Source: Clostridia bacterium (GTDB taxonomy: Bacteria > Bacillota > Clostridia > Oscillospirales > Acutalibacteraceae). From it: a stretch of 44,082 nucleotides of DNA. The position numbers were made by a program, and so were the translations under genes. The stretch is from assembly GCA_017481085.1 (NCBI GenBank), contig JAFUPS010000065.1, positions 1 to 44,082 of the forward strand. Reading direction: 5' to 3'. This document shows, piece after piece, positions 8,640 to 30,484 of the stretch (positions within the stretch are counted from its first letter, which is position 1; the number at the start of each line of letters is the position of its first letter). The notes beneath the pieces are model-generated. The model searched no databases and was not told where the DNA came from. It was given only the letters and a program-made list of their open reading frames with translations.

Positions 8640-10130
8640 ATGAAAAAGATTTTGTGTGTATTGCTGGTCCTCGCGATGTTGCTCAGCTTCACGGCGTGCG
8701 ACAGCGAGCCGGAAGTTGAATTAAACGTCCCCGAAGGCAAACCGACCTACGCCGATGATAAAGAGCTGGAGCTGTACGCATACGCCGGTCCCCGAAGCGG
8801 CGGCTATCGCTGGCAGGTAAACGGCGAGACCCACCCGGACGATCCGGCAGGCGGTTGGGACGGGTTCATTACCGAAAAAGATTTCCAGGATTACATTGAT
8901 TGCGGCTTTACGTTCCTCTATCCGGAGTACGATGGCAAGGCGTATCGTAACGCAGCCGATCTGCAAGTTCCGTTTGAGCAGAGTACGCTGTACGAGTACA
9001 TGTCTCTGGCTGAGAAAATGAATATCGACGTGGTGGTTCAGGACGATACCGTCACGCAGCTGACCAGAGGCACCTCGCCGCTGATGGATGACGATATGAA
9101 AGCGTACGTCAAGCAACTGATCGACGATCTGTCCACCTTTGAATGCTTCAAAGGCCTGACGCTTGCGGACGAGCCGAAGGTAAACAATTACCGCATTTTT
9201 GAGCAGGTGACCAACTTCGCCCGTTCGGTCAAAGCCGATATCGAGCTGATCACCTGCATGCTGCCGGTCTACGGTGCGCCGCACTTAAACGTCGGCACCG
9301 GTACGACGGCGGATTACCAGGAGTACATCGACGACTACGGCAAGCTGGACGGTCATTTCATTTATGACTTCTATCCGCTGCGCTGGTCGCCGGTGACTGG
9401 CAACTACCTGAAGAGACAGTGGTTCCAGAATCTCGAAATGGTCGCTAACAGCAGCAAGACCAACGGCTTTGAGACCGGCGTGGTCATCCAGTCCTGCGCT
9501 TACGGCGGTGTGGGCAACGAGGGTGTCGCAGACCACGCCCGCTCGGTGCTGACGCAGGCAGACGTCGGCTACCAGCTGTATACGTCGCTGGCCTACGGTG
9601 CCAAGACCATCGGTTACTTCACCTACTGGCAGCACCGTAGCGAAGGCCGCCCGGACATCAACGAAGGCTTCTACGATGCGATGGTCATGTACCCGAAGGA
9701 CAACGGCATGGAATCGGTCAAGACCGATACCTACTACGCCGTCAAGGCCGCCAACCTCGAGGTCAAGAAGTTCGATCACGTGCTGATGAGCTTCGACTGG
9801 GAAGGCACGATCGGCCTGAAGGGTACCGATAAATTCAAGACGATGATCGACATTCCGGAGTACACCAATCCGCGCATTGCCGAAGCGACCTCCACTGAGG
9901 ACGCGATCATCGGCTGCCTGAAGGACCAGAACGGCTACGACGGTTTTATGATCGTCAATGCCCTGGAGCCCAGCCTGGAACAGAGCGTTTCCGTCACCGT
10001 GAAATTCCGTGAAGCCTCCTCCGCGATCGCTTACGTCAATGGCGAGGAAACGGAAATTCAACTGGAAGACGGCAGCTATACGTTTAACCTTGACGCCGGT
10101 GCCGGTGTCTTTGTGATCCCGATCAAGTAA
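8640..10130 (+). CDS. Surface lipoprotein carrying an unassigned glycoside-hydrolase-like domain (paralog 1 of 3)
   Basis: The ATG at 8640 follows an AAGGAG RBS. The lipobox is MKKILCVLLVLAMLLSFTAC. It shares the motifs GFTFLYPE, GLTLADEP, YDFYP, VVIQS, YTSLAYGAKTIGYFTYWQH and the C-terminal GVFVIPI with 17192-18601 and 25705-27207. Confidence 0.55.
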   Translation: MKKILCVLLVLAMLLSFTACDSEPEVELNVPEGKPTYADDKELELYAYAGPRSGGYRWQVNGETHPDDPAGGWDGFITEKDFQDYIDCGFTFLYPEYDGKAYRNAADLQVPFEQSTLYEYMSLAEKMNIDVVVQDDTVTQLTRGTSPLMDDDMKAYVKQLIDDLSTFECFKGLTLADEPKVNNYRIFEQVTNFARSVKADIELITCMLPVYGAPHLNVGTGTTADYQEYIDDYGKLDGHFIYDFYPLRWSPVTGNYLKRQWFQNLEMVANSSKTNGFETGVVIQSCAYGGVGNEGVADHARSVLTQADVGYQLYTSLAYGAKTIGYFTYWQHRSEGRPDINEGFYDAMVMYPKDNGMESVKTDTYYAVKAANLEVKKFDHVLMSFDWEGTIGLKGTDKFKTMIDIPEYTNPRIAEATSTEDAIIGCLKDQNGYDGFMIVNALEPSLEQSVSVTVKFREASSAIAYVNGEETEIQLEDGSYTFNLDAGAGVFVIPIK

Positions 10131-10143: not shown

Positions 10144-11754
10144 ATGAAAAAGACAATGACGAAAGTTCTGGCGATGCTGATCGCCGCGGTGATGCTCATC
10201 GGCTGTATGGCCGGCTGCGATGGCAGCGGCGGCGGTGCGAAACTGACCGGCGAAGTGCTGATGATCACGGCTGCGCTCAACGGCTTGGGCGAAAGCTGGC
10301 TGCGCGACGCAGCCGAGGCCTACACCTATGAGACCGGTGTGGAAGTGCGTATCGAGTTTGACTCGCTCGTTTCGCAGAATATGACCACCATCTTCGAAAC
10401 CGAAGGTATGGAGACGGCTGACCTCTATTTTGCACAGTCGTACGAGTGGGCGCAGTGGTTTGACCGTGGCTACATCATGGATATTACCAGCATGATGAAC
10501 CAGAAGGACGAAAACGGCCAATCGCTCAACGATCGTATGGTCTCCACCAAAATGTACACGCTGGACAGCGGCGAGGAGAAGCAAAGCATTCTGCCGGTGA
10601 CCAACGCCCCGACCGGTATGGTGTATAATAAAGCGATGATGAAATATCTCTGCCAGGACGTGCTGGGCTGGGATGCATCGCACGAGTACCCGGTGAACAC
10701 CAAAGAGCTGCGCGAAGTGATCGCGGCGCTGGAAAAGGTGACCGCCGAGGGTACCAACAAGGAACTCTTTACTTATGAACAGTCCGGCCAGACCCTGCCG
10801 GTCAAGCCGTTCGTGTGGTCCGGCTCTACGGGTATGCTGGAAATGATGACCTATCCGTGGATGTGGCAGTATTTCGGCACCGAAGGTATGACCGCCTACT
10901 TCAGCCAGACCAAGAACATTGATATGCTCAACGATCAGGGCTTCTATCAGGTCTACCAGGAAATGGTCGATCTGCTTGGCCTGGTCGAGGACCCCAACAC
11001 CGGCGAATGGACCACCACCACTTCCATTCCGGGCTGTGCTTCGCTCAACCACGTTGGCTCACAGCAGCGTTTCCTGCGCGGCCAGGCGCTGATGGCACCG
11101 ACCGGCTCGTGGTTCTATAACGAAATGGAAACCGTTATCAACGAAAAAGAAGGTCTGGCAGAGAACGTTGCGTTTATGCCGACTCCGTGGATGGCGGATG
11201 AAAACGGCAACCCGATCACCAAGGAAGGTGTCGAGATGCCGAAGGATGAAAACGGTAACTACAAGCCGTATGTCAAGATCAATACGCAGGACTATTTCTG
11301 CATCCCGACCAAGGCGTATGCGCCGGAACTGGCTCAGGACTTCCTGCTGTTTATGTTCTCCTCGGATTATCTGCCCACTGTGGCGGAGACGTTGCAGTCG
11401 CCGGTGTGCTTCGAGTACGGCGATGTCGAGATCGAAAAGACCTCGTGGTTTGCAAGCGTCGACAAGGCGATGCAGATCGGTGTGCAGGCAACGAAATTTG
11501 CGCCCAACAAGCTGGCGCTGTACGGCCGCATCGGCTTCTACTACAACCCGGACGTTGCGCCGTTCTCCCGTCTGGTGCAGTCCAGCTTCGGCAGCAGCAA
11601 CATCCTCGTCGACTCGGCGACCGGTAAAGTGATCCAGTCTGCCGATCAGGCGACCGGTATTGCGGTTACCGAAAACGTGTACAAATATGTGAAAGGTAAC
11701 TTCGATCGCGGCTCCATCGCGTTCCAGGATGCTAAAAAAGAGTTGGGAGTGTAA
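10144..11754 (+). CDS. Large extracellular solute-binding lipoprotein of a carbohydrate ABC transporter (LplA-like)
   Basis: The lipobox is MLIGCMAGC. The 536-aa size and its position directly upstream of two sugar-type permease genes fit this call. Confidence 0.75.
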   Translation: MKKTMTKVLAMLIAAVMLIGCMAGCDGSGGGAKLTGEVLMITAALNGLGESWLRDAAEAYTYETGVEVRIEFDSLVSQNMTTIFETEGMETADLYFAQSYEWAQWFDRGYIMDITSMMNQKDENGQSLNDRMVSTKMYTLDSGEEKQSILPVTNAPTGMVYNKAMMKYLCQDVLGWDASHEYPVNTKELREVIAALEKVTAEGTNKELFTYEQSGQTLPVKPFVWSGSTGMLEMMTYPWMWQYFGTEGMTAYFSQTKNIDMLNDQGFYQVYQEMVDLLGLVEDPNTGEWTTTTSIPGCASLNHVGSQQRFLRGQALMAPTGSWFYNEMETVINEKEGLAENVAFMPTPWMADENGNPITKEGVEMPKDENGNYKPYVKINTQDYFCIPTKAYAPELAQDFLLFMFSSDYLPTVAETLQSPVCFEYGDVEIEKTSWFASVDKAMQIGVQATKFAPNKLALYGRIGFYYNPDVAPFSRLVQSSFGSSNILVDSATGKVIQSADQATGIAVTENVYKYVKGNFDRGSIAFQDAKKELGV

Positions 11755-11757: not shown

Positions 11758-12687
11758 ATGAGCCGAACTCTTAACGGTATGGAAAGGATCAGGCGTCGGC
11801 GTGTCGCCTTCGCTCTGCTCCTGATGGCCTGGCCGGTATTTATGTTTGTATTCGGCCAGGTTCTCAACCTGAATATGTTCTACATGGCGTTCCATAACTA
11901 TGGACGTTACGGTACCGCCAACCCCATCTTCGTTGGCTTTGATAACTTCGTGGGCGTTTTCAGAATGTTCGACGAAACGATCATCGGCAACGAATGGGAA
12001 GCGGTAACCAACTCCCTGCAGGTCGCGGGCGTTACGCTGTTTATCAACGCCCCGATCTCCCTGCTGTTTGCGTACCTGCTGTTCTCCAAGGTCCCGGCTT
12101 ATAAGACGCTGCGTGCTTTGCTGTATCTGCCCTGCGTGACCTCTGCGGTCGTGCTGGTGCTTATCTTCCGCGGTGTCTTCGAATCCGGCCCGCTGGAGAT
12201 GGTGTATCAGCTGTTGGGCGTTGCGGATAAATATCCGGTCAACGGCTGGTTTGTGCAAGGCCGTGCCTGGCCGGTCATCCAGATCTTCAATATCTGGACC
12301 GGCTTCTCCACCAATATGTTGTTCTTCCTTTCGGCCATGAACCGCGTGTCGGACGACTTCGTGGAAGCCGCTAAGCTAGACGGTGCCACCGAGCCGCAGA
12401 TCTTCTTCAAGATCGTGTTGCCGCTCATCTCGCCGACGGTCACCACCATTATGACCATTTCGTTGGCGGCGGTGTTTGGCTGGGGCCAGCAATCCATGCT
12501 GTTTATGGGCGACTTCTCCGGTGCGGAGGGTACCTCGGCCATCGGTCTGACGATGCTGGGTATGGCCCAGAGCCGAAACTTCGGCGGTGCATCCGCCTAC
12601 GGTGTGTGCCTTACTCTGGTCGGCGCACCCATCACCCTGGCTATTCGTGCGTTGGGCAGAAAACTGTCCACCAACGAAGAGTATTAA
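11758..12687 (+). CDS. Carbohydrate ABC transporter permease (LplB/MalF-type)
   Basis: It has six hydrophobic segments and an EAA-like loop (DDFVEAAKLDGATEPQIFFKIVLP). Confidence 0.85.
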   Translation: MSRTLNGMERIRRRRVAFALLLMAWPVFMFVFGQVLNLNMFYMAFHNYGRYGTANPIFVGFDNFVGVFRMFDETIIGNEWEAVTNSLQVAGVTLFINAPISLLFAYLLFSKVPAYKTLRALLYLPCVTSAVVLVLIFRGVFESGPLEMVYQLLGVADKYPVNGWFVQGRAWPVIQIFNIWTGFSTNMLFFLSAMNRVSDDFVEAAKLDGATEPQIFFKIVLPLISPTVTTIMTISLAAVFGWGQQSMLFMGDFSGAEGTSAIGLTMLGMAQSRNFGGASAYGVCLTLVGAPITLAIRALGRKLSTNEEY

Positions 12688-12700: not shown

Positions 12701-13597
12701 ATGGCAAGAGTAAGAGAATACCGTAAAGATAAGGTCAAGACCCCCACTACCGTCGGCAGTGTGCTGTGGGCTGGCTTCAAATGGATCGCCTACGTGCTGA
12801 TGATCCTGTGCGCATTTTCCTTCGTGTTCGTGTTCGCATGGACGTTTATGAACTCCTTCAAAACGGCCATTGGCTATGCGGAGGACACCTTCTTTCTCCC
12901 CGAAGTATGGGATTTTGATAACTATGCGAAGGTGCTGCGCGAAATGCAGTATAAGTCCTACGGTCTGTTCGAGATGCTCGGCAACTCGGTGATCCTCATT
13001 GCGCTGGGCGTTATCAACGCGATGGTCTGGCCGCAGTTTGCCGGCTACGCCATGGCACGCTTTGAGTTCCCGGGCCGCAAGATCATCGAAGCCGCGGTCT
13101 ACGTGGCAATGATCATCCCGATCATCGGTACCACCAGTACCGTGATGCAGATCAAAATGGCCCTCGGTCTGTATGACACGTTCCTCGGCGAATTCCTGTT
13201 CGGCTCCGGCGCGCTGGGTATGGGCTCGATCATGTATACCACCTTGTACCGCGGCCTGCCGGCGGCCTACGCCGAAGCAGCGTATATCGACGGCGCAGGG
13301 GAGTGGAGAGTGTTTTTGAACATCTACTATCCGCAATCCGTTCCGCTGATGCTGATCTTCGTCATTCAGGGCGCTATCGGTACGTGGAACGACTACATGG
13401 GCCCGTATCAGATGCTCCCGACTCACCCGACATTGGCGCTCGGCTTGCACGAGATGCAGCAGCGCTTCGTCCACTTCGGCGGCGATTACCCGGTGATGTT
13501 CGCCGGCTTGATCCTGGCTATGGCTCCCGTTTTGATCGTGTATTCGATCTTTGCGGATAAGATCATGGGCAACACCGCTATGGGTGCGTTGAAGTAA
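12701..13597 (+). CDS. Carbohydrate ABC transporter permease (LplC/MalG-type)
   Basis: The ATG at 12701 follows an AAGGGGG RBS. The EAA loop is AYAEAAYIDGAGEWRVFLNIYYP. Confidence 0.85.
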   Translation: MARVREYRKDKVKTPTTVGSVLWAGFKWIAYVLMILCAFSFVFVFAWTFMNSFKTAIGYAEDTFFLPEVWDFDNYAKVLREMQYKSYGLFEMLGNSVILIALGVINAMVWPQFAGYAMARFEFPGRKIIEAAVYVAMIIPIIGTTSTVMQIKMALGLYDTFLGEFLFGSGALGMGSIMYTTLYRGLPAAYAEAAYIDGAGEWRVFLNIYYPQSVPLMLIFVIQGAIGTWNDYMGPYQMLPTHPTLALGLHEMQQRFVHFGGDYPVMFAGLILAMAPVLIVYSIFADKIMGNTAMGALK

Positions 13598-13708: not shown

Positions 13709-16700
13709 GTGCGTTTAACCAAGAAATTTGGAGCAGTCGTGCTCGCTTTGGCGCTGCTTATCAGCTGCCTGGGCGTATTCACGGTTTCTGCCGCTACCGA
13801 CACGGTGATGAATTTGGTCTCGTTCCGTGACAGTGCTACCGGCTATGCGTCGTACGATTATTCGGCGTCCTATACGGATGCATCGTGGCGTATGTTTTTT
13901 TACGGCGATGCTTCCCCGACGGATATTAACGCTGCTTTTGGCGATTACGTCGTCACGTGGGACAACGGCGGTGAGACCGGTCAGTCGGCCGTACAGTTGT
14001 ATCCGCAGAACGCCGATAACGGCATTATGTGGGCTGTTATCTGGGGCGTTCCGGCCGCAGATGCCCTGGTGGACGGTGCGACCGTAAAGATCGCTGCCGG
14101 CACCGGTACGACCGGCAGCGGAAACAGCATCACGCTGGCCCGTGACGTCGACATGAAGTGGCATGCCGATACCCAGAGATGGGAGTACATCGCTCCCGCA
14201 CCGAGCTATACCGGCAATGCGTTGGCGTACAGCTCATCTAACGCGGGCAGCGGTTTTTACGCTTCCAGCGCAGACTCTATTCCGTATAATACCGATTGGA
14301 ATTATCGTTACTTCCCCATTGGGACACAGGGCGAAATCACCCTTATTCGTAACGGTGTGGAGACCAAACTGCCGAATGCGTATTTCCAGAAGATTGGCGC
14401 CTCGTCGTATTATATTAACGTCGAAGCTGGTGGCACACCTGTGCAGGCAGGCGATACCATCCGCATATCCGGCATATTTGGTCTGGGCGATTGGACGAAG
14501 GCGTGGGTCATCGGCTGGTTCCCGGGCACTTATGTAGAAATCCCGGAAGCCGTCTTTGATTTCGACGGCTCCAACTGGAGTGCCGGCTACGTACTGAGCG
14601 ACGATGCCGTCGTGCTGACTCACTTGGACGTCATTGCGGCGCACCAGTCGGCAACCGCCTTTTACACGAGCCTCCCGGAAGGCACTACCGGCTTGACTAT
14701 CGATAATGATTGGTATACGCGTTTCTACCCGATGACCAACCAGGACGGCGGCTTTGTAAACGGCACGGCCTACGCCAATCGTTTTGCGTTGGATGGCGGT
14801 GGTGGCATGCCGATCCAGAGCTCGGCCGGTGCGGCTGGTCTGTACGTGAGTGGTTTTGGCACGGCGACTGAAGGCACGACCGTCACCATCATGGGTGATT
14901 TCTACGGTTATAACCGTAACACCGGTGTGATGACCGGTGAGCAGATAACGCTGTATGCGCCGGTCACCTTCACCTACAGCGGCGGTGTGTGGACGCGCAC
15001 TTCCGAGATTCCGGAGATCCCGGTCTCTTGGAACTACCACGACTTTACGATTTCCGGTGTCAGTCAGGTGATCGAGAACGCTGCGACGACTGGTTATCGC
15101 CATTTCTACCTGAATATCAACGGCGAAGTCCCGGGCGACTGGGATAAGTTCGAGCACCTGCAGCTCGCCGTCAACGATGGTGAAAAATTTGGCGTTCGCG
15201 TTGGCAACAACGGTTCGACCTCCGTTATCTGCTTTGACGTGTATAAGGATTACATGCCCGCGTCGATCGACGTTGGAACGACCCTTACGCTCTATGCCGG
15301 TGCGGCGACACCCGCCGCTGATGCTGTCAATGTCAATGCCGATGACGCCATTCGTCTGACGCAGGATTGCACGCTGGTGTGGGATGGCTCCGGATGGGTG
15401 CTGGAAGAGGATTACAATCCGATCAGCTATACCAATCTGACCATCACCGGTGCGATTGAACCATCTGGTTTAAATACCGACAGCGGACGTTGGGATTTCT
15501 ATCTGTCTGTTGACGGTACTATCCCGGGCGTGGCTGACAGCGGCTATAGCTTCGCACCTATCAAAGCGATCTATAAAGATGCCGTCGGCAATACGATTCT
15601 GGAAAAGAACTTTACCTTCACCCATGCCGCTCACGGTAACGGCACGTTCTTTGCTTACGTCGAATTCACCGAGCTGACAGCCGATGCTTTGCCGGCCGGC
15701 TCGCATGTCACCTTCTATGCCGGCAAGGCGGATCCGACCACCGGTTCCGAAGGTATCAATATTACAAATGATTTCTCGCTCGAGTGGAACGGCAGCGAGT
15801 GGGTGACACCGGATCTTACTGTGTATGAGGATGTTGCTCTGAGCGCCCCGGAAAACGGTTGGAACGCTGAGCATTCCTGGTGGGATATCTATCTCACGTC
15901 CGATATCATTCTGCCGGGTACTGCCTGGGAGACTGCCTATAAGGATATCGTTGTGGAATACGGCGACGGTGCAACCGCCAATGGTCTGGCTGTCAAGAAG
16001 GCCGGCGATAAGCGGTTGAACGTCTTCTTCACAAGCGATGCTCCGGCTGTCGGTACCAAGATCACCATCAAGGCCGGCAAGTCCAAAGCGTATAACAATT
16101 CCACCGGCGTGGTGGATACGACCGCCAACGGCATCAACATCGTGTCGGATTATGTGATGGTCTGGACCGGTACCGGATTGGTGCCGGCGGCAGATTATGT
16201 GGTGTATAATGACCTCACTCTGACCGGCACGGTCAATCCGACCGGCTGGAGCGGCTCGATTTGGAACTTCTATCTGAGCGTTGATGGTACCATTCCGGGC
16301 GTGGGTGACAGTGGTTATTACTTCACACCGGCTTACATCACTGTGGTGGATGGCAACGGCAATACGCTGCTTAACAAATTTGAGAGAAACTTGGCTTTTG
16401 CGGCACATCAAACGACGCTGTTCTTCAACATTGACGCCAGCTCGCTGCCGTATGCCAGCGTGACCGAGGGCACCGTTCTGACTATCCACAGCGGCAAGAT
16501 GGATCCGATCTCCTGGGAATCCATTGCCCGCAACGAAGACGGCTATCAGATCGGTATCAACGTGCAAAACGACCTTGTGCTTGTGTGGGACGGCGCGTCG
16601 TGGATCAACTACCTCGACCGCTCCGGCTACACCGTGTACGAGGGCTCGGTATCCACGAAGGGTGCTGAAGTCGATCCGTCCACGCCGCCGCACCTGTATC

Positions 16701-18601
16701 TGCAGGGTAGCGACACGCTGGATGCGGTCATGAAAGACGTAGCCACCGATTGGAATATTGCCTACGTGTATCCGATGCTCGGCAGCGCCAACGGCGTGTT
16801 CCTCAACGGCACCAAGATCAGCGTTTCCTTCCAGAAATACAGCGGTGGGGCTAACCGCTGGTATATGGGCGGCGTCACGCCTTCTGCAGAGGGCGATACG
16901 CTCGTCATCAAGGGCCAATTCTACAACGACACCTATCAGGTCATCGTTGACCTGGCTCCGCTCACCCTCGTGTGGAATGGTACTCAATGGGTGCAGCAGA
17001 TCATCGCAACGGTGGAGAAGGACGTCAACGGCGACGGCGAAGTGGACATCCGCGATGCTATTCTGCTGCAGATGCACCTGGCCGATACCACCGTGGTCAT
17101 CTCCAATATGTCCGATATCAACGAGTCTGGCTCGGTCACTTCGGATGACCAGCGTATGCTCCGGCGTTACCTGCTCGGCATCGTCGTCACCTACGTGAAC
17201 GACATCCCGGTCGGTACGCCGTACTACGCCGGTGGCGAGATGATCAAGACGGCCTACATTCCGCCGGCAATCGGCACGATCGATTGGGATACCGAAACCG
17301 TCAACTTCAAGAGCGATGATGAGATCGACCGCCTGATGGACGATTATGCAGCGGCCGGCTTCACGCACATCAACCCCGAGTCCTATGCGTATTTCTATGA
17401 TCAGGCAGCTGATTGGGGTCCGCAGCAATTGCTGTATCGCTATTTCGAAGAAGCGGAAGAGCGCGGTCTGAAGGTCATTGTGTCCAGCGCATATATGTTC
17501 AACCTGTTGAGGGCCGGATGGGATATCGATACCTATGACTCGTCCGATGCGACGCAGGTGAACTATACCAACTGGCGTGCGGTTATGGAGAGCCTTGTCA
17601 TCATTTTGAGTGAGCACCCGGCGTTCTGGGGCTTCATGATGGCTGACGAACCGGATAGCAGTCAGATTTCCAACTATGTGAAGGTCATTTCCTATCTGCA
17701 CGAGACCTATCCGTCGGTTGGCACCTACTGGGCGAACTACCCGAGCTATGCATCCTCGAGCGCAGTGGGTGGCAACTACACCAACTACGTCACGTCGCTT
17801 GGTGCCGGTACCGGTCAGTTTATGTACGACAGCTACTGCCTGGTTAATAAGGATACCTGGTACGGCTCCTCGGATAACTATATCGACGAGTACTGGTTCT
17901 CCAACCTGAACACGGTTGCCACGCTGGGCCGCGATAACAACTTCACCAGCGGTATCACCATGCAGTCGACGGCGTTGACGCCGACCGGCGGTGACGGTTT
18001 GTTTGCCAATACCTATCAGCGCCGTCAGATCCTCTCCGATGCCGATATCGGCTTCCAGGTGTACACCGCGCTGGCATACGGTTTCAAGGAGCTGAGCTAC
18101 TTCACGTATTCGGATCACCCGTCCGGTACGAGCGCCAGCGTTGTGCTGAATACCTCTATGGTTGGCACTGACCTGTCCACCAAGAACGCGGCGTACTACG
18201 CTGTCAAGAACACCCATGCCGAGATCAAAGATCTCGAGGCGGCGCTGGTCAACTACAACTGGCTGGGCACCATCGAGCTGAATCTGGAAGATTCCGACGA
18301 TAAGACCTCGACCTATACGGCGGCGAACAACGACCGCTTGGCTTCCGTCTCCAACGCCAGCGGTGCGTTGGTCATCGGTTGCATGAAGGACGTTGACGGC
18401 TACGACGGTTACATGGTTGCAAACGCTTCCGAGCCGTCCAAGTCCAGCACTTCTTCGGTCACTCTGACCTTTAACAACGCCACCAAGGCGCTTGTGTACG
18501 TCAACGGCGTGGCACGGGAAGTGACGCTGACGAACGGTGCTTACACCGTGTCGGTTGCCGACGGCGAAGGCGTGTTCATCATCCCGATCCTCGAAGGTTA
18601 A
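13709..18601 (+). CDS. 1630-aa secreted multimodular protein: signal peptide, 8 repeat modules of about 120 aa, an internal dockerin, and a C-terminal GH-like domain (paralog 2 of 3)
   Basis: The GTG start follows an AAAGGAGG RBS and the signal peptide ends VSAATD. Modules end in (W/Y)(D/N)G(S/T)xW. The dockerin lies at 17021-17178. The C-terminal domain has the motifs GFMMADEP, YDSYC, ITMQS and YTALAYGFKELSYFTYSDH. Confidence 0.7.
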   Translation: MRLTKKFGAVVLALALLISCLGVFTVSAATDTVMNLVSFRDSATGYASYDYSASYTDASWRMFFYGDASPTDINAAFGDYVVTWDNGGETGQSAVQLYPQNADNGIMWAVIWGVPAADALVDGATVKIAAGTGTTGSGNSITLARDVDMKWHADTQRWEYIAPAPSYTGNALAYSSSNAGSGFYASSADSIPYNTDWNYRYFPIGTQGEITLIRNGVETKLPNAYFQKIGASSYYINVEAGGTPVQAGDTIRISGIFGLGDWTKAWVIGWFPGTYVEIPEAVFDFDGSNWSAGYVLSDDAVVLTHLDVIAAHQSATAFYTSLPEGTTGLTIDNDWYTRFYPMTNQDGGFVNGTAYANRFALDGGGGMPIQSSAGAAGLYVSGFGTATEGTTVTIMGDFYGYNRNTGVMTGEQITLYAPVTFTYSGGVWTRTSEIPEIPVSWNYHDFTISGVSQVIENAATTGYRHFYLNINGEVPGDWDKFEHLQLAVNDGEKFGVRVGNNGSTSVICFDVYKDYMPASIDVGTTLTLYAGAATPAADAVNVNADDAIRLTQDCTLVWDGSGWVLEEDYNPISYTNLTITGAIEPSGLNTDSGRWDFYLSVDGTIPGVADSGYSFAPIKAIYKDAVGNTILEKNFTFTHAAHGNGTFFAYVEFTELTADALPAGSHVTFYAGKADPTTGSEGINITNDFSLEWNGSEWVTPDLTVYEDVALSAPENGWNAEHSWWDIYLTSDIILPGTAWETAYKDIVVEYGDGATANGLAVKKAGDKRLNVFFTSDAPAVGTKITIKAGKSKAYNNSTGVVDTTANGINIVSDYVMVWTGTGLVPAADYVVYNDLTLTGTVNPTGWSGSIWNFYLSVDGTIPGVGDSGYYFTPAYITVVDGNGNTLLNKFERNLAFAAHQTTLFFNIDASSLPYASVTEGTVLTIHSGKMDPISWESIARNEDGYQIGINVQNDLVLVWDGASWINYLDRSGYTVYEGSVSTKGAEVDPSTPPHLYLQGSDTLDAVMKDVATDWNIAYVYPMLGSANGVFLNGTKISVSFQKYSGGANRWYMGGVTPSAEGDTLVIKGQFYNDTYQVIVDLAPLTLVWNGTQWVQQIIATVEKDVNGDGEVDIRDAILLQMHLADTTVVISNMSDINESGSVTSDDQRMLRRYLLGIVVTYVNDIPVGTPYYAGGEMIKTAYIPPAIGTIDWDTETVNFKSDDEIDRLMDDYAAAGFTHINPESYAYFYDQAADWGPQQLLYRYFEEAEERGLKVIVSSAYMFNLLRAGWDIDTYDSSDATQVNYTNWRAVMESLVIILSEHPAFWGFMMADEPDSSQISNYVKVISYLHETYPSVGTYWANYPSYASSSAVGGNYTNYVTSLGAGTGQFMYDSYCLVNKDTWYGSSDNYIDEYWFSNLNTVATLGRDNNFTSGITMQSTALTPTGGDGLFANTYQRRQILSDADIGFQVYTALAYGFKELSYFTYSDHPSGTSASVVLNTSMVGTDLSTKNAAYYAVKNTHAEIKDLEAALVNYNWLGTIELNLEDSDDKTSTYTAANNDRLASVSNASGALVIGCMKDVDGYDGYMVANASEPSKSSTSSVTLTFNNATKALVYVNGVAREVTLTNGAYTVSVADGEGVFIIPILEG
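17021..17178 (+). other. Type-I-like dockerin module (two Ca-binding repeats) inside the 1630-aa protein
   Basis: DVNGDGEVDIRDAILLQMHL ... DINESGSVTSDDQRMLRRYLLG is the classic duplicated F-hand pattern DxNxDGxxxxxDxxxLxxxL. Confidence 0.7.
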
Positions 18602-18697: not shown

Positions 18698-21600
18698 ATG
18701 AAACTTAGCAAACGCATTCTTACAATTGCGCTGTCAATTATTATGCTGTTGAGCGCTTTGGCGGTGCCGGTCGTTGCTGCCAACGACTTGACGGTCGCCG
18801 GTGTACATAACTTCAGCACGGTCGCCGGGGACTGGCGGTTCTGGCTGAACATGGAAGGCACCTGGCCGGTCAGCGATAGCTTTATAGCATTTACCGCTCC
18901 TGCGGTGAGTATCAACGACACTACGCTCGATTCTGCTGTTATTGAGACCTACAAAGACGGCGATAGGTTGTTGCTGTGTCTGTGGGGCCCGTTGACCGGT
19001 GGCGTCACGCCGAAGGCCGGCGATACTGTCGTTGTCAAAGCAGGGCAGATCTCTGCCGCCTCCGGCACTGCCAATATTGCCGAGGATGCCGTGTTGGTTT
19101 ACGACGGTTCGGCATGGAATCTGCAAGTTCAGGTCACTTATTATGATGCCAAATTGACCTTTACGGAGGCACAGACAAGCTCCGCGGCGAATTATCTCTA
19201 TATGAGTGCATATTGCGATATGCCTTGGGATGCTGGTTATAGCGACTGGCACGTTAAGATGAAGGCTGCCGATGCTGATAGCGGCGTCTTCCTCAACGGC
19301 ACCAAGGCTGTCGATGCGCAGATTGTCCCGTACGGAGAGGTATGGACCGAGACGGGTGCCGTCACCGATTGGTGGTACTATATTGAACTGTTCGGTACAG
19401 CTGTTGCCGGCGACGAACTTACCATCAAGGGCAAGTTTGCCTATGGTAATATCGGTATCAACGTGGCGGAGATCACGATGACCTATGACGGCAGCGCATG
19501 GACCGTCAAAGAAGCGGAAGAAGAGGATACTGCTGTCGAGATCCCGTATCTCGATGTGATCGACCAGTCGCACCTGCAGAATGCGACCTCGTTCTATACG
19601 GCAGTGCCGGATGCGTCCATCGCACTGACCGACAGCAAGGCCGACTGGAGCAACCGCTTCCTGCCGGTAGGCGAGGAGGACGGTGCGTTCTTCAACGGCA
19701 CTCGCTTTGACGTGGATGGCGGTGGCGGCCTGGCGTATCAATCGTCTGCCGGTGTGGCCGGTTTCTATATCAATGGCTTTGGAACGGCTGTTGCCGGTGA
19801 CAAGGTTACGATGCAGGGCCGCTTTGCTTCGGCTAAGACCGGCGAAGTGTTCAAGCTGATCGCTCCGGTGGAATTCACCTATGACGGCAGCAAATGGACG
19901 CGCACCTCCGAGAAGCCGGATTACGTGCCGGACGAAAAGGTTTATGATAACAACTACACCGGTACGCTGACCACCGTCGGCGCAGAGACCACCGGTGCGG
20001 CCCACCAGCTCTACCTCAAGGGCGATGCCGGTCTAGATCTGTACAAAGTCAACGTGACCGACTGGTCGGTTCGTCTGACGGTTGCTGTCGGCGATGATAA
20101 CGGCGTGTTCCTCAACGGCAACAAAGTGGCTGGCGGCTCACTGTTTAAGTACGGCGATGCTGACAACTACTGGTTTGCCGAAGGCTTTACCGCTACGACC
20201 GGCGATGTGATCACCATCAAGGGCGATTTTGTTAACGATGCACAGTCGGCGAAGGTGACTATTACCGAATGCCAGTTCCAGTGGGATGGTTCTAAATGGA
20301 TCGATTGCGTTCCGTCTGTTGAGCCGGAGTGGACGTATCACGATTTCACCATTACCGGTGTCAACGTGGTGCAGAACAATACCGCCAGCAACGGCTACCG
20401 TTATTTCTATCTGAATATCAACGGCGAAGTTCCGGGCAACTGGGATAAGTTCGAAGGTCTGCAGTTTGCTGTCAACGGCGGCGAGAAGTTCGACGTTCGC
20501 GTTGGCAATAACGGCAGCACAGGCGTGATCTGCTTTGACGTACACACTAGCCATATGCCGGCAGATATTCCGGTCGGTACAACCATTACGTTGTATGCCG
20601 GTGAAGCGCCTGCCGCTTCGGATGCAGCCAATGTTGCGGCTACCGACGTGATTCGCCTGGTCGCGGATTATACACTGGAGTGGAACGGCACCGAATGGGC
20701 TGCTCCGACCGATGAGCCGACCTACGTCGATGTGATGCTGTCCAATCCGTTACACGGCTGGAATAATGAGCAGTCCTGGTGGGATATTTATCTCAATACC
20801 GATGCCGCTCTGCCGGGTACGAATTGGGAGACCGTCTACAAAGATATCGTCGTCGAGCTCGACGGTACTGCTGTCAGCGGTGCGACTGTTCAGAAGGCCA
20901 ATAACGACCGCGAACTCAATGTTTTCTTCACTGACGATACGGCGCCGATTGCCGGTACCAAAGTGACGGTCAAGGCCGGTAAATCGCTGGCTTATGTGAA
21001 AGCGACCGGCGAATTGAACGCCGATCTGGACGGCATTAACATCACGGCCGATCATTCCTATATCTGGGATGGCGGCAAGCTGGTGCTCGAGAGCGAATAC
21101 CAGCCGCCGGTGGAATTCACGTATTACGATTTCACCGTCAGCGGTCTGAATCAGTACATTGATAATCTGGCTAATGACTACCGTCATTTCTACCTCGCCA
21201 TTAACGGCGCTGTCCCGGGTAACTGGGATAAGTTCGAAGGTCTGCAGGTTGCGGTCAACGGCGGCGAGAAGTTCGACGTTCGCGTTGGCAATAACGGCAG
21301 CACAGGCGTGATCTGCTTTGACGTACACACTAGCTACATGCCGGTGGATATCGCCGTTGGCACGACGTTGACGATCTACGCCGGCGAGGCGCATCCGGCT
21401 GCTGATGCAGCGAACGTGGCTGCCACCGACGCTATCCGTCTGGGTGCGGATTACACGCTGGAGTGGAATGGCAGTGCCTGGGTGCTTCCGGGTACGGAAA
21501 TCGAGTATACCGAATACACCGGTACGCTGACCACCGTTGGTGCGGAGACCGGTAACACCAACAACAACCACATCTACTTTGCCGGCAGCGCTACCCTGGA

Positions 21601-24600
21601 TGCCTACAAGGTCAACACGACCAACTGGGATGTCCGCCTGGTTCCGGTGGAGGACGGTGTGAGCGGTGTGTACCTCAACGGCATCAAGATGCCGGGCGCT
21701 ACCGTCTTCAAGTACAACGATGCGGCTAACAGATGGTTTGCGGAAGGCTTTATTGCCTCTGAGGCCGGTGACAAGGTAACCATTAAAGGCTCCTTTGTCA
21801 ACGATATGCAGGCGGCCAAGGTCATCATCGAGGAATGCTCCTTCATTTGGAACGGCTCCAAGTGGGAGGATGAGCAGACCGATATCGACTACAGCCAGTA
21901 CACCGCATACAACGGCACGCTGACCACCTTCGGTGCGGAAGCGACCGGTAAGAACAACCAGATCTATTTCAAGGGCGATGCCGGTCTGGCTGAGGTCTTC
22001 AACGATCTGATCGCGGCTGATAAAGAGGCCGGTAACGAAACCAACGGTTGGAACACGTCCATGCTGTATGCGCTGAAGGGCGAAGAAAACGGTTTCTTCC
22101 TCAACGGCGCCAAGGTCGATGCGCTGGAATTCCAGAAGTACAGCGATATCAACAACGGTTGGTTTGCAACCGGCTTTATCGCAGAGGTGGGTGACGTGCT
22201 CACCATCAAGGGCTCTTTTGCAAACGATGCGCAGCAGGTGCTGATCACATTCACCGAACGCAGCTACATCTGGGACGGCAACAAGTGGGCCGACGACGTG
22301 CCGGATACCACCGTGTATACCGATATCACGCTGACCGGTATGACTCTGCCGAACTATAGCGATGACGAATACGATCACTGGATCCTGCACCTCACCTACA
22401 ACGGCACCCTGCCGTCTGTGCACGGAGAGCGTTTTGAGAATCCGATGACCTACATCGATGGCGTTCGCGTATCGGATGGCAATATGTCTTTCTATGACGA
22501 TAGCGCCAGCGGCTTGCTGCTCGACCTGTGGGTGCAAGGCCTGAAGGACGAGGGTCCGGCTGTCGGCCAGAAGATCACCGTCAAAGCCGGCAAGCTCAAG
22601 AGCAAGTCTAACCCGGACGTTGGTATCAACATTACCGAAGATATCACGTTTGAGTACAACGGTACGAAGTGGATCATCGAGGGCTGGGTGGATACCACTG
22701 TCTACGAGGAGATCACCCTGAAGGACGATCCGATCTCCCCGAGCGGTTACCGCGATACCAGCAACCGCTGGGATTTCTACATCCCGTTTGACGGCACGAT
22801 CTCCGTTGAGCCGGATAACAACGGCCGCTTCGATTTCATCAAGGTGTCGGTCGTGGACGGCAGCGGCAAGAAGCTGCTGGATAAGGTGGACGTTATCGCT
22901 CACCACGCGGCTCACGGCAACACGACCGTGTTCTTCATTCTGGAAAACACGCTGCTCTCCAAGGATGCTGTCACGGCGGGCACGGTTCTGACGATCCATG
23001 CCGGCAAGGCGGCTCCGAGCGGCAATTCGATCAACGGTATCAACGTGACCGCTGATTACCAGATCAAGTGGAACGGTGATGCGTGGATCAACCCGAACTA
23101 CGTGGAGATCCCGTCGAAGGAAACGGTTACGTTGCAGTTGGACAAAAAGACGGATTACGGCGGCAATGAGAACGGTATCTACTTGCTCACCACCGACCAC
23201 TTCCCGGTCGATAAAGAGTGGAAGACGCGCATCTCGGCGGTCAGCTACGATGCTGATAGTGGCGTTTTCTTCAACGGTGAGAAGGTATACAACTCCAGCC
23301 TCTGCCGTTTTGACGACGGCAAGGTGTACGTGACGCTGGCGGATGCCGGCATTCTGGCGCAGGATAAGGACAAGGTCACGATCAAGGGTCTGTTCGCATT
23401 GGACGGCTACGGTGTTACCTACAAGGAACTTACCTTGTACTATAACGGTGTCGAGTGGGGTACCACCTATACGAAGGCCCCGGAAAAGACCTGGACCAAG
23501 TTCCAGATCGAAGGCATCAACACGGTGACCAGCTACAATTCGGTTTCCAAGCAGTGGAACATCTATCTTAACCTGAGCAATATGATCCCGGGCGATATTG
23601 ACGATATGAGCTTCAACGGTATGAAGGTCGTCGTCAACGGTCAGGAATACGATCTGTTTACGGCACACTCCTACCAGCATACGCTGTATTGCTACATCCC
23701 GGGCGACATCCTGCCGAACAAGGGTGTGGATGGCACGGCGGTCACCATCAAGGCCGGCAAGGCGATGGGTGAGGACCGTCACAGCGGTATTGAGTTGACG
23801 AAGGATTTCACCTTCTACTATTACAAGGGTGCGCTGAACGCTAAGAAACCGACCACCAATACCACCTGGCACGACGTAACGGTCACCCGTATGAATCAGA
23901 CGAAGGCGTTTGATCCGGCGACCGGTGAATGGCGTTTCCACCTGATCATCCGCAGTTCTCTCGAAGAGGTGGAGAACAATACGGTGTTTGGCGAACTTCC
24001 GTTGGTAGTCAACGGTGTCAAGCACGAGGTCACGGCGATGCTTGACAACTCCTATCTGTTTATCCGTATTCCGGAAAGCGTGATGGGCGACGTGCAGAAG
24101 GCAACGATCAAGATCCCGGCCGGTGCTACGGCGATCGGTGATGCCGGTTATCACGGCCTCAAATTCACCAACGAGTGGACCGGCTACGTGTTCAACGGTG
24201 TCCTGGCTGAAACGGATTACACCGAGGCAACCCGCCAGAAGGCGAACATCCTCGGCGTGCAGGCGATCACTCCGGGTGTGGACCGCGATCACGTGTATCT
24301 GCGCCTGAACAAGGAAGTATATGGTACCGCGTGGTACGAAGGCTACACGGGCTTCACCTATTACTACAATGGTAAGCTGATCACCACCGACGCATTCAAG
24401 AGCGAGAGCTCCAACAACAAGTTTATGTATTTCCCGATCGTTCACAAAGACGTCGGCGGCACCGCCAAGGAAGGCGACAAGATCGTCATTAAACCGGGCG
24501 CTGTCGGCAAGGGCGGCGGTTACGAGCTGGAGATCACAAACGAGTTTACGCTGGTCTTCAGCGGCGGCTTGTGGACGCAGTATGTGGATTCCGATGTCCA

Positions 24601-25633
24601 GGCGCCGACCAATGATAAGACGCTGTGGGAGGAGTATCGCTTTGGCGAGGGCTTTATCCCGACGATCAAGGAAGGCAATTCGGTACTGTGGTCGAACGAA
24701 GATTCCTACCACAGCATCGAATCCATCGACAAGCACGGCGATTACACCTTCACCTTCGAGGCGACCAAGAAGTACGACGACGAGGTCGTGCCGCCGTTCT
24801 ACGTGATCATGCGCGGTAACCAGATCAGCGAAGAAGATCCGATGACCGCCGAAATGCTGTACGGTTACGTCATTCAGTTTGCGGCTCTCGAAATCGACGA
24901 TCCGGCAAATCCGGGCGAGAAGATCTGGTCGCAGTACATCAACCTGTGGAAAAACGGTATCAACGGTTCGCTGATCGACCAGTATCGTATCACCTATATC
25001 CACGATCAAACCGATCACCCGTTCTTCGAGTATGAGGAGACCTACAAGTATGAGTTCTCCGTTTTCAACATCTCGGAAACGATGGCATGCATCACTGTGA
25101 AGATCAACGATCGTCTGGCACTTCGTTACTACGATGTCGCCAGCAGCGATCCGTTTGATCCGGCTATCAACGACGGCACCTTCGGTGTTTACGCCAGCTG
25201 CCCGGGTTATATCACCAGCGAGCCAATCGAGCTGGAACAGATGATCGTGGCGAAGGATACCTGCTACGTTGGCGATGGCGTCCGTGTGGCGGCAACCTAT
25301 CCGTCTATTCTGGATGGCGCCGTATTCACGGTTGACAGTGAATTCGCCACCGTGGTCGACGGTGTGTTCCGTGCAGACAAAGCGGGCGTATACACCATCT
25401 CCTGCACCTACAACGGTAAGGATCTCGGTTCCAAGACCATCACGGTCGAGGATCCGCCGAGGCGTACCGATACGGAGGCAGAGGAAGGCGAATTCCCGTG
25501 GCTGATCGTCGGCATTGCCGGCGGTGCGGTCGTCATCGCGGTGGCCGCTCTGTTCGTTATCTTGGCTGTTGCCAAGAAGCGCAAGGCTGCTGCTGCGGTT
25601 GCAGAAGCTGAGCAACCGACCGCGACGGAGTAA
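18698..25633 (+). CDS. 2311-aa cell-surface protein: signal peptide, about 15 repeat modules related to those of the upstream gene, a jelly-roll-like domain, an Ig-like domain and a C-terminal TM anchor
   Basis: The ATG at 18698 follows a GAAGGAGG RBS and the signal peptide is MKLSKRILTIALSIIMLLSALAVPVVAAND. The C-terminus is PWLIVGIAGGAVVIAVAALFVILAVAKKRK plus a 17-aa tail. There is no LPXTG and no catalytic motif that I recognise. Confidence 0.7.
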   Translation: MKLSKRILTIALSIIMLLSALAVPVVAANDLTVAGVHNFSTVAGDWRFWLNMEGTWPVSDSFIAFTAPAVSINDTTLDSAVIETYKDGDRLLLCLWGPLTGGVTPKAGDTVVVKAGQISAASGTANIAEDAVLVYDGSAWNLQVQVTYYDAKLTFTEAQTSSAANYLYMSAYCDMPWDAGYSDWHVKMKAADADSGVFLNGTKAVDAQIVPYGEVWTETGAVTDWWYYIELFGTAVAGDELTIKGKFAYGNIGINVAEITMTYDGSAWTVKEAEEEDTAVEIPYLDVIDQSHLQNATSFYTAVPDASIALTDSKADWSNRFLPVGEEDGAFFNGTRFDVDGGGGLAYQSSAGVAGFYINGFGTAVAGDKVTMQGRFASAKTGEVFKLIAPVEFTYDGSKWTRTSEKPDYVPDEKVYDNNYTGTLTTVGAETTGAAHQLYLKGDAGLDLYKVNVTDWSVRLTVAVGDDNGVFLNGNKVAGGSLFKYGDADNYWFAEGFTATTGDVITIKGDFVNDAQSAKVTITECQFQWDGSKWIDCVPSVEPEWTYHDFTITGVNVVQNNTASNGYRYFYLNINGEVPGNWDKFEGLQFAVNGGEKFDVRVGNNGSTGVICFDVHTSHMPADIPVGTTITLYAGEAPAASDAANVAATDVIRLVADYTLEWNGTEWAAPTDEPTYVDVMLSNPLHGWNNEQSWWDIYLNTDAALPGTNWETVYKDIVVELDGTAVSGATVQKANNDRELNVFFTDDTAPIAGTKVTVKAGKSLAYVKATGELNADLDGINITADHSYIWDGGKLVLESEYQPPVEFTYYDFTVSGLNQYIDNLANDYRHFYLAINGAVPGNWDKFEGLQVAVNGGEKFDVRVGNNGSTGVICFDVHTSYMPVDIAVGTTLTIYAGEAHPAADAANVAATDAIRLGADYTLEWNGSAWVLPGTEIEYTEYTGTLTTVGAETGNTNNNHIYFAGSATLDAYKVNTTNWDVRLVPVEDGVSGVYLNGIKMPGATVFKYNDAANRWFAEGFIASEAGDKVTIKGSFVNDMQAAKVIIEECSFIWNGSKWEDEQTDIDYSQYTAYNGTLTTFGAEATGKNNQIYFKGDAGLAEVFNDLIAADKEAGNETNGWNTSMLYALKGEENGFFLNGAKVDALEFQKYSDINNGWFATGFIAEVGDVLTIKGSFANDAQQVLITFTERSYIWDGNKWADDVPDTTVYTDITLTGMTLPNYSDDEYDHWILHLTYNGTLPSVHGERFENPMTYIDGVRVSDGNMSFYDDSASGLLLDLWVQGLKDEGPAVGQKITVKAGKLKSKSNPDVGINITEDITFEYNGTKWIIEGWVDTTVYEEITLKDDPISPSGYRDTSNRWDFYIPFDGTISVEPDNNGRFDFIKVSVVDGSGKKLLDKVDVIAHHAAHGNTTVFFILENTLLSKDAVTAGTVLTIHAGKAAPSGNSINGINVTADYQIKWNGDAWINPNYVEIPSKETVTLQLDKKTDYGGNENGIYLLTTDHFPVDKEWKTRISAVSYDADSGVFFNGEKVYNSSLCRFDDGKVYVTLADAGILAQDKDKVTIKGLFALDGYGVTYKELTLYYNGVEWGTTYTKAPEKTWTKFQIEGINTVTSYNSVSKQWNIYLNLSNMIPGDIDDMSFNGMKVVVNGQEYDLFTAHSYQHTLYCYIPGDILPNKGVDGTAVTIKAGKAMGEDRHSGIELTKDFTFYYYKGALNAKKPTTNTTWHDVTVTRMNQTKAFDPATGEWRFHLIIRSSLEEVENNTVFGELPLVVNGVKHEVTAMLDNSYLFIRIPESVMGDVQKATIKIPAGATAIGDAGYHGLKFTNEWTGYVFNGVLAETDYTEATRQKANILGVQAITPGVDRDHVYLRLNKEVYGTAWYEGYTGFTYYYNGKLITTDAFKSESSNNKFMYFPIVHKDVGGTAKEGDKIVIKPGAVGKGGGYELEITNEFTLVFSGGLWTQYVDSDVQAPTNDKTLWEEYRFGEGFIPTIKEGNSVLWSNEDSYHSIESIDKHGDYTFTFEATKKYDDEVVPPFYVIMRGNQISEEDPMTAEMLYGYVIQFAALEIDDPANPGEKIWSQYINLWKNGINGSLIDQYRITYIHDQTDHPFFEYEETYKYEFSVFNISETMACITVKINDRLALRYYDVASSDPFDPAINDGTFGVYASCPGYITSEPIELEQMIVAKDTCYVGDGVRVAATYPSILDGAVFTVDSEFATVVDGVFRADKAGVYTISCTYNGKDLGSKTITVEDPPRRTDTEAEEGEFPWLIVGIAGGAVVIAVAALFVILAVAKKRKAAAAVAEAEQPTATE
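20471..20551 (+). repeat. 81-nt segment identical to 21254-21334 (copy A), inside otherwise diverged paralogous modules
   Basis: GTCAACGGCGGCGAGAAGTTCGACGTTCGCGTTGGCAATAACGGCAGCACAGGCGTGATCTGCTTTGACGTACACACTAGC is present at both positions. Confidence 0.9.
21254..21334 (+). repeat. 81-nt segment identical to 20471-20551 (copy B)
   Basis: The string is the same as copy A. The flanking roughly 45 nt upstream are near-identical, and identity decays further out. Confidence 0.9.
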
Positions 25634-30478: not shown

Positions 30479-30484
30479 TAAACA

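Follow-up and report, generated by a model that had tools for sequence, protein, structure and literature searches.

The window analysed here is a stretch of 44,082 nucleotides from a Clostridia bacterium of the Acutalibacteraceae (assembly GCA_017481085.1, contig JAFUPS010000065.1). It encodes three copies of one domain: a predicted lipoprotein (copy 1), the C-terminal part of a secreted dockerin protein (copy 2) and a form without a signal peptide (copy 3). Profile comparisons place the domain as a divergent branch of the β-galactosidase lineage of glycoside hydrolase family 42 (GH42, clan GH-A), not as a family unrelated to it. We propose, with slightly less than even confidence, that the three copies represent an unannotated glycosidase family which derives from GH42, lacks an enzyme nucleophile and probably relies on substrate-assisted catalysis, and that they operate in a staged polysaccharide-utilisation locus.

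Ancestry and fold of the domain

The link to GH42 emerges from a family profile (A4) of 69 divergent sequences, in which column identity averages 22%. When the PDB sequences are searched with this profile (hmmsearch), it reaches the GH42 enzymes 5xb7 (E 4.9e-6) and 4uoq (E 1.2e-4), the GH5 enzymes 8z2w (E 1.8e-4) and CelC (E 2.8e-4), and GH164 (E 1e-3). In the alignments with 4uoq and 8z2w, a conserved Asp-Glu-Pro (DEP) motif of the family lies over the NE(P/Y) acid/base motif. Comparison by HHalign with a GH42 reference profile, assembled from eight annotated GH42 β-galactosidase genes from plasmids, covers the whole barrel and gives a probability of 98.3% in the local mode (E 1.8e-14) and 99.2% in the global mode. 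Furthermore, a peripheral cytoplasmic member (nt 14976-16211 of the related locus L034) passes the Pfam GH42 model PF02449 with 28 bits at a cut-off of 21, and one Borkfalkia member carries the UniRef name ‘GH42 N-terminal domain-containing protein’. The original prediction, made from the letters of this DNA, had noticed the likeness of DEP to the acid/base motif of clan GH-A; fold and profile both bear this out. Its suggestion of a new family holds in part: the three window copies find no model in Pfam or NCBIfam, yet the family diverged from within the GH42 lineage.

Searches of lesser reach were silent. Pfam, NCBIfam and the PDB sequences yielded no significant match for the three copies, for a profile of these three or for a 77-sequence profile, nor do close relatives of the window copies reach a Pfam model. 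Only the more divergent A4 reached GH42 and GH5. No solved structure appears to be a closer sequence relative than GH42/GH5 at E ~1e-6. Comparison with Pfam, NCBIfam and the PDB sequences thus sets the domain apart as an apparent GH-A/GH42-derived family with altered catalytic machinery.

The whole domain of copy 2 was modelled by AlphaFold2 (AF2) from the 77-sequence alignment with a pLDDT of 89.1 and a pTM of 0.92. The model contains eight β-α units (residues ~18-352) followed by an all-β domain (residues 355-467), and a barrel-only model concurs (pLDDT 85, pTM 0.86). The predicted architecture is a (β/α)8 barrel with a C-terminal β-sandwich, in agreement with the TIM barrel and the β-sandwich-like tail which had been expected from the sequence.

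Foldseek searches of the PDB with these models retrieve glycoside hydrolases with TIM barrels (identity ~10%, TM ~0.45-0.57), with a probability of 1.00 for many GH-A barrels; nearly all the top matches belong to this clan. The whole domain matches PslG (GH39, E 6e-12), GH30 xylanases and members of GH35, GH2, GH140, GH66, GH13, GH29 and GH27. The barrel alone matches BT_0435 (4h41), GH5 mannanases, GH2 glucuronidases, GH164 (TMq 0.57), GH39, GH157, GH99, GH1, GH35 and GH42. BT_0435 is the best of the barrel-only matches (E 5.9e-7, TMq 0.53, TMt 0.57), but it shares only 9% identity with the family and is itself uncharacterised, having been deposited as a ‘putative alpha-L-fucosidase’. We take 4h41 to be a member of Pfam DUF4434 (PF14488). 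Identity of the family with DUF4434 was considered and rejected: three members show weak matches below the Pfam cut-off, and a PDB search with one protein, P0180, returned only dockerins.

The C-terminal ends of the strands form the catalytic face of a TIM barrel. In the model, conserved polar residues stand at or just after these ends in β2, β4, β6, β7 and β8. The DEP motif lies three residues past strand β4, and a Gln-Ser pair occupies the end of β7. Since DEP follows directly on the C-terminal end of β4 and is aligned with a GH42 catalytic residue, it is probably located in the active site.

The three stretches themselves were found where they had been described, and BLASTP aligns them pairwise over their full length and co-linearly. 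The pairs are copies 1 and 2 (E 1e-68, 31% identity), 1 and 3 (E 1e-72, 31%) and 2 and 3 (E 1e-36, 26%); this relatedness is far beyond chance. The shared blocks which had been listed for them all recur in the three-way alignment: G(F/L)T..PE, (A/T)DEP, (Y/F)D(F/S)Y, QS, LA(Y/F)G, FT(Y/F) and the GVF(V/I)IP tail.

Compartments were assigned from N-terminal sequence features alone. As read from the translated sequence, copy 1 begins with MKKILCVLLVLAMLLSFTAC, followed by D, a signal which ends in a lipobox Cys; by the lipobox criterion it is a predicted bacterial lipoprotein. Its DEP and IQS motifs are encoded at nt 9168-9176 and 9486-9494. Copy 3 opens directly at the conserved P-x-Y-x-D-D..AY.GPR motif without a hydrophobic leader and cannot be extended in the 5′ direction, since its open reading frame (ORF) already uses the first start codon available downstream of a stop. 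It is predicted to be cytoplasmic. The targeting to three compartments that had been proposed fits these N-termini and recurs in other genomes. There, copy-1-type orthologues are lipoproteins (40-65% identity) whose genes adjoin that of a large extracellular solute-binding protein (SBP), copy-2-type orthologues are C-terminal domains of giant proteins (49% identity; loci L001 and L002), and copy-3-type orthologues are leaderless proteins of 488-489 residues (52-54% identity) encoded 3′ of giant genes (L019, L032 and L040). The window copies are only 26-31% identical to each other and each has its own orthologues elsewhere, which argues that the split into tethered, secreted-docked and cytoplasmic forms is old and conserved and did not arise by recent local duplication.

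Active-site residues and candidate mechanism

Conservation was counted over 232 near-full-length, diverse members, with the numbering of copy 2. Three residues, E153, Y215 and G297, are invariant (232/232). G147 and D152 are each kept in 231 members, and D152 is never replaced by Asn. P154 is found in 84% and is otherwise Leu, Ile or Val. Further conserved positions are Q289 (98%), D213 and Y306 (97% each) and Q258 (96%, never Glu), whereas D285 at the start of helix 7 is acidic in 95% and Asp in 91%. Strand β7 follows the pattern G-(I/V/L)-(T/V)-(I/V/L)-Q-(S/A/T), and positions 255-266 hold no conserved Asp or Glu. The acidic pair of the DEP motif, which the original prediction had singled out in three sequences, is thus a near-constant feature of the homologues. 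Neither of the results that would have overturned that prediction, a fold other than a TIM barrel or a DEP not kept in homologues, was obtained.

Most of these residues have GH42 counterparts in the HHalign alignment. E153 corresponds to the acid/base Glu and D152 to the Asn which precedes it, Y-D213-x-Y215 to the D-x-Y on β6, the Q289-x-Y..LAYG helix to the Q/R..A-x-GA motif, and W307 to the β8 Trp. The nucleophile Glu of GH42 (h-h-E-T-x-A-Q-G) falls on position 257 (Ile, Val, Leu or Met), with a one-residue gap before Q258. In contrast, an ungapped comparison of the motifs (h-h-I-E-T-x-A-x-G versus h-T-I-Q-S-x-A-x-G) puts the nucleophile on Q258 and retains a Gly five residues downstream in both families; this placement is consistent with the in/out alternation of the strand. 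Under either register no carboxylate occupies the nucleophile position. The earlier observation of Gln-Ser where a clan GH-A enzyme should have its nucleophile therefore agrees with the model, in which the pair ends β7, the site of the GH42 nucleophile Glu.

Retaining enzymes of clan GH-A require the β7 Glu, and the Asn of their N-E-P motif normally contacts the C2 substituent of the substrate. In GH20, GH84 and GH123, where neighbouring groups participate in catalysis, an adjacent Asp-Glu pair occurs without a nucleophile from the enzyme. From this residue pattern, neighbouring-group catalysis is our leading reading, held somewhat short of an even chance. The general acid/base Glu153 is kept in the D-E-P after β4, the preceding Asn of GH-A has become Asp, and a near-invariant Gln has replaced the β7 nucleophile. 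Hydrolysis with retention would then proceed by attack of the 2-acetamido group of the substrate on C1. Asp152 would polarise this group while Glu153 acts as the acid/base, as in GH20, GH84 and GH123, and the conserved Tyr215 on β6 together with Gln258 would hold an oxazoline-type intermediate. An N-acetylhexosamine (HexNAc) substrate is suggested by the residue pattern alone.

The family can be compared with GH20, GH84, GH123 and the NgaLy-type β-N-acetylgalactosaminidases (β-GalNAcases; 8k2n). A TIM barrel, an Asp-Glu or Asp-Asp pair after β4 and the lack of an enzyme nucleophile are common to both sides, and a conserved Tyr appears available to hold the acetamido oxygen. The likeness ends there: a sequence relationship is not detectable, and in structure the family resembles these enzymes no more closely than it does any GH-A barrel.

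Several observations weigh against the substrate-assisted reading. The Pfam models of GH20, DUF4091/GH123 and GH84 are unmatched among the 25 listed of the 49 families found with the 77 members (E <= 10), and the PDB sequence matches include none to the GH20, GH84 or GH123 families. GH20, GH84 and GH18 structures are absent from the top 50 Foldseek matches; the GH123-type β-GalNAcase 8k2n, at rank 34 the sole entry of its kind among them, is structurally no nearer than ordinary GH-A enzymes. The placement of the nucleophile on Q258 comes only from the ungapped comparison, while HHalign gives position 257, so the register is uncertain by one residue. D213 on β6 and D285 at the start of helix 7 are conserved carboxylates which might have an unforeseen role. 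Lastly, the neighbouring genes in related loci indicate mixed glycans (rhamnosides, mannosides, fucosides and possibly glucuronides), not specifically HexNAc catabolism, and the cohesin gene of the window, whose product would dock the extracellular enzyme in the pathway proposed below, is kept in only 1 of 72 related loci.

The conserved carboxylates lead directly to another explanation, namely a GH42-like glycosidase acting on non-acetamido β-glycosides, with a relocated nucleophile or base (Asp213 on β6, Asp285 after β7, or Tyr215 activated, in a sialidase-like manner, by a neighbouring carboxylate) or with inversion via water. This is conceivable, although we doubt it. The rest of the GH42 −1 subsite signature is kept (E153, the D-x-Y on β6 and the Trp on β8), D213, D285 and Y215 are conserved at 97%, 95% and 100%, and the structural neighbours are β-galactosidases, β-mannosidases and β-glucuronidases. 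The genomic neighbours GH2, GH78, GH29 and GH38 would suit it as well, a clear HexNAc pathway not being among them. However, canonical GH42 enzymes also possess the β6 D-x-Y and still need the β7 Glu, so that D213 is probably a binding residue, and we know of no clan GH-A enzyme with a β6 or Tyr nucleophile. The replacement of Asn by Asp, fixed in 231 of 232 members, would also go unexplained. The adjacent carboxylates D152 and E153, lacking an enzyme nucleophile, could instead serve retention through the 2-hydroxyl of the substrate. Such a mechanism, which has been proposed for GH99, passes through a 1,2-anhydro sugar; Asp152 would be the base on O2 and Glu153 the acid. GH99 endo-α-mannosidase barrels do occur among the Foldseek matches (TMq 0.50-0.51), and some loci have mannoside-related neighbours (GH38, β-mannosidase-type GH2). 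Yet GH99 is no nearer than many GH-A barrels, the sequence homology leads to GH42 and GH5 instead, and to date a single family is known to use this mechanism; we consider it very improbable.

The loss of the nucleophile might also mean the loss of catalysis. A dead GH42 descendant could be a surface glycan binder which passes oligosaccharides to the SBP, comparable to chitinase-like lectins or SusE/F-type proteins; the commonest form of the family is indeed a lipoprotein encoded beside or inside an SBP-permease operon, and the domain can share its polypeptide with long arrays of binding-type modules. We find this unlikely. At the low column identity of A4, near-invariant D152 and E153 and a Q258 kept at 96% exceed what would be expected of a binder, and a protein that captures glycans would serve no purpose in the cytoplasm, where conserved leaderless paralogs are predicted. 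These leaderless forms, and the fusions to CE2/GDSL esterase, Metallophos, tyrosine-phosphatase and dockerin domains, of which those to esterases and phosphatases resemble enzyme architectures, argue for an enzyme rather than a binder. Phosphate could replace the nucleophile in a glycoside phosphorylase, which needs only a general acid; GH112 has a GH42-like barrel, and the cytoplasmic copy 3 is encoded downstream of an importer of the ATP-binding cassette (ABC) type. Such a phosphorylase, or else a transglycosylase, has little to recommend it, since phosphorolysis yields no energetic gain outside the cell, where the majority of members, being lipoproteins or dockerin-bearing secreted proteins, would act, and a conserved Arg/His phosphate-binding cluster is not evident among the columns with at least 80% conservation.

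Against this background, we return to substrate-assisted glycosidases of GH42 descent. With GH42 β-galactosidases (PF02449) they share a barrel which can be aligned end to end at 98-99% HHalign probability, the acid/base Glu after β4, the D-x-Y on β6, the Q-x-Y..LA-x-G-A motif of helix 7 and the β8 Trp. They differ by an Asp in place of the Asn before the acid/base and by Ile/Val-Gln in place of the nucleophile Glu. Furthermore, GH42 enzymes consist of a barrel, a trimerisation domain and a C-terminal β domain, whereas the family has a barrel and a single β-sandwich of ~115 residues, the middle domain not being detected; neither Glyco_hydro_42M nor Glyco_hydro_42C gives a Pfam match in the window copies or among the families listed for the 77 members. 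The proteins are accordingly shorter (about 450-500 versus about 670-740 residues). Finally, GH42 enzymes are typically cytoplasmic, whereas the members of the family are mostly lipoproteins or secreted.

The locus in the window

Coordinates of the locus and its elements are collected in Table 1.

Table 1. Genes and sequence elements of the glycan locus and of its 5′ flank (positions in the window)
Feature	Position	Strand	Basis or content
AraC regulator	3804-4616	−	Pfam
GH4 glycosidase	4667-6001	+	Pfam; between two AraC regulators
AraC-family regulator, divergent from operon	6062-6955	−	Pfam HTH_18, HTH_AraC
Secreted cohesin-domain protein	7285-8373	+	Pfam Cohesin E 1.1e-11 (cohesin nt 7399-7782); signal-like N-terminus
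Copy 1, GH42-like predicted lipoprotein, 496 aa	8640-10130	+	ATG with AAGGAG ribosome-binding site; lipobox
Large extracellular solute-binding protein, sugar ABC transporter	10144-11754	+	Pfam SBP_bac_1, SBP_bac_8
ABC permease 1	11758-12687	+	Pfam BPD_transp_1
ABC permease 2	12701-13597	+	Pfam BPD_transp_1; homologues 287-293 aa
Secreted modular protein, 1630 aa	13709-18601	+	signal peptide, 8 modules of ~125 aa (nt 13850-16990), dockerin, copy 2
Copy 2, GH42-like domain, 469 aa, C-terminal part of the 1630-aa ORF	17192-18601	+	AF2, conservation, HHalign
Copy 2, predicted barrel	about 17243-18247	+	AF2 models
Copy 2, D152-E153-P154	17645-17653	+	motif position
Copy 2, Y212-D213-S214-Y215	17825-17836	+	motif position
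Copy 2, M257-Q258-S259	17960-17968	+	motif position
Copy 2, predicted β-sandwich	about 18254-18592	+	AF2 models
Cell-surface giant protein	18698-25633	+	signal peptide, 15 modules, ~290-aa C-terminal region, membrane anchor
Copy 3, GH42-like form without signal peptide, 500 aa	25705-27207	+	translation; DEP at 26170-26178

The anatomy of this locus and the synteny described below suggest a Gram-positive polysaccharide-utilisation locus. Polymer would be attacked outside the cell by the dockerin enzyme, which bears eight binding-type modules and would be docked on the cohesin protein. The lipoprotein copy would trim the fragments at the membrane beside the SBP, the ABC transporter would take up the products, and the leaderless copy would complete their hydrolysis in the cytoplasm.

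The docking step is suggested by a type I dockerin at residues 1104-1156 of the 1630-residue protein (nt 17018-17176; Pfam Dockerin_1, E 1.5e-8). A type I dockerin on the enzyme with a cohesin encoded nearby is the hallmark of cellulosome-type display, and the cohesin protein is the likely docking partner of the copy-2 protein. Apart from its signal peptide and cohesin it has a C-terminal region of ~190 residues; we could recognise neither a transmembrane anchor nor a sortase motif or S-layer homology domain in this protein.

Two gene starts deserve comment. Permease 2 most likely begins at the ATG at 12701 (MARVREY...) and not at the GTG at 12587. The giant gene most likely begins at the ATG at 18698, which has a GGAGG ribosome-binding site (GAAGGAGG) and is followed by a signal peptide, rather than at the listed position 18608. 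In the giant protein no catalytic domain is recognised and no meaningful Pfam match was obtained. Its C-terminal ~290 residues (24575-25633), which precede the membrane anchor FPWLIVGIAGGAVVIAVAALFVILAVAKKRK, match no Pfam family. Iterated hidden Markov model (HMM) searches reveal that the module of ~125 residues, which ends in a W-x-G-x-x-W-like motif, occurs eight times in the dockerin protein (13850-16990) and fifteen times in the giant surface protein of 2341 residues (18782-24574). None of the 23 copies matches Pfam or its carbohydrate-binding modules (CBMs), and a new domain for binding or spacing is probable. The SBP gives no clue to the substrate, its sole PDB relative being an unnamed family-1 SBP.

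Cellulosome-type Gram-positive loci offer a parallel to this arrangement. They too combine an AraC regulator, an SBP with two permeases, multi-modular secreted enzymes, a type I dockerin with a cohesin, and extracellular, membrane-tethered and cytoplasmic enzymes in one locus. In the window, however, paralogs of a single uncharacterised family would carry out all three catalytic steps, the binding-type modules find no Pfam CBM, and the cohesin gene is rarely conserved.

The flanks contain further genes. None of the 72 related loci contains the GH4 gene, which was therefore dismissed as a conserved part of the system and probably forms a unit of its own. A longer minus-strand ORF (4613-5998), which has no Pfam match, overlaps this gene. 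Further upstream, an ORF of 458 residues (1259-2635) gives a weak match to a Card1-like endonuclease below threshold (E 1.2e-4, 22 bits, cut-off 26.4) and adjoins a minus-strand ORF of 287 residues (2904-3767) without a Pfam match. Downstream of copy 3, the region 27293-32427 encodes a tandem VTC domain protein, a DUF4956 protein, a Cthe_2159-family carbohydrate-binding protein and then, on the minus strand, a histidine kinase/response regulator pair; these genes appear to have no connection with glycan use. SpoIVA and two tandem type I signal peptidases (33307-34785 and 38052-39181) indicate a spore-forming Firmicute. The G+C content is about 50-55% across the window, without a compositional break at the glycan locus.

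The family and its genomic settings

When 5.8 billion proteins were searched by a word index, 160 relatives emerged, nearly all of ~500 residues and from uncultured Clostridia, and nearly all either unnamed or called ‘hypothetical protein’. The representatives of 1.84 billion clusters (50% identity) were searched exhaustively with an HMM, which yielded 4530 family proteins at E <= 1e-3, 2808 at E <= 1e-10 and 731 at E <= 1e-30. By this last threshold the family comprises no fewer than 731 such clusters. Of 120 homologues, the large majority carry a lipobox-like Cys, including some which a regular expression had left unflagged. The domain also often stands at the C-terminus of proteins of 900-1900 residues, and it is fused to dockerins, CE2/GDSL esterase, Metallophos phosphoesterases and a tyrosine-phosphatase-like domain (Y_phosphatase3). 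Fusions or adjacent genes of these phosphoesterase and esterase types, or adjacent DUF4838/GH163 or GH29 genes, are represented by proteins P0125, P0180, P0191 and P0233 and by loci L038, L039, L041, L003, L027 and L063.

The 72 related loci stem from GTDB species genomes, and their genes were compared by tblastn and clustering. The hosts are gut and rumen bacteria (Faecalimonas, Acutalibacteraceae, Christensenella, Borkfalkia and Lachnospiraceae, with one Acholeplasma and one Paludibacteraceae), and several paralogous family loci per genome are common. In 49 loci the family gene has permease genes as immediate neighbours, and 46 loci contain the SBP cluster. The AraC cluster occurs in 25 loci; tblastn places AraC homologues upstream of, and divergent from, the family gene in 15. 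ArsR-like regulators were counted in 13 loci, and giant repeat proteins in 23, where they are encoded 3′ of the transporter genes. Three types of synteny recur: AraC with a divergent lipoprotein-SBP-P1-P2-giant(s) series; ArsR followed by GH2-P1-P2-lipoprotein-SBP-giant; and family-GH163-Metallophos-family-family-AraC-unknown-GH29 (P1 and P2, permeases). The genes 3′ of the copy-3 orthologue in L040 are housekeeping genes.

Glycoside hydrolases recur among the neighbours: GH2 in 10 loci, GH163 in 5, GH78 and GH29 in 4 each and GH38 in 2. Further neighbours are β-mannosidase-type GH2 (2), AGE epimerase (2), ROK (2), SASA esterase (2), FGGY kinases and RhaA. HHalign comparison of the family with thin GH2, GH163 and GH29 profiles made from these neighbours gave probabilities below 1% and was uninformative. 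Four loci (L034, L043, L049 and L057) have a gene of ~810-860 residues between two permease genes, which, from sizes and counts, is probably the GH78 α-L-rhamnosidase counted four times. Upstream genes in L043 have sizes compatible with the RhaA and FGGY kinase entries of the census. The genomic setting clearly points to glycan catabolism without singling out one substrate, and through the adjacent permeases and the SBP cluster the family is tightly coupled to ABC sugar importers.

The recurrent phosphoesterase, esterase, GH163, GH29 and GH78 fusions and neighbours make host glycans or bacterial cell-wall polysaccharides candidate targets. As a side observation, the associations with phosphoesterases, esterases, DUF4838/GH163 (5 loci) and GH29 (4 loci) hint at phosphorylated or acetylated glycans of host or cell-wall type. 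A wider picture can be drawn in which this GH42-derived family is an evolutionary bridge from the classical GH-A enzymes with two carboxylates to the substrate-assisted hexosaminidases, and in which hundreds of uncultured gut Clostridia direct a three-compartment cascade at a HexNAc-containing, possibly phosphorylated or acetylated, target; we offer it as speculative, at roughly a one-in-three level of belief.

The family is sizeable, lacks a Pfam or NCBIfam model, is present as several paralogs in gut and rumen Clostridia and is central to ABC-transporter glycan loci. An assigned activity would fill a sizeable gap in what is annotated of carbohydrate metabolism in uncultured Firmicutes. With Asn fixed as Asp and Glu as Gln while the active site otherwise stays GH42-like, a switch of mechanism within clan GH-A is to be expected. 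Finally, one fold which is apparently deployed in three compartments of a single locus would provide a convenient system for the study of staged glycan breakdown in Gram-positive bacteria.

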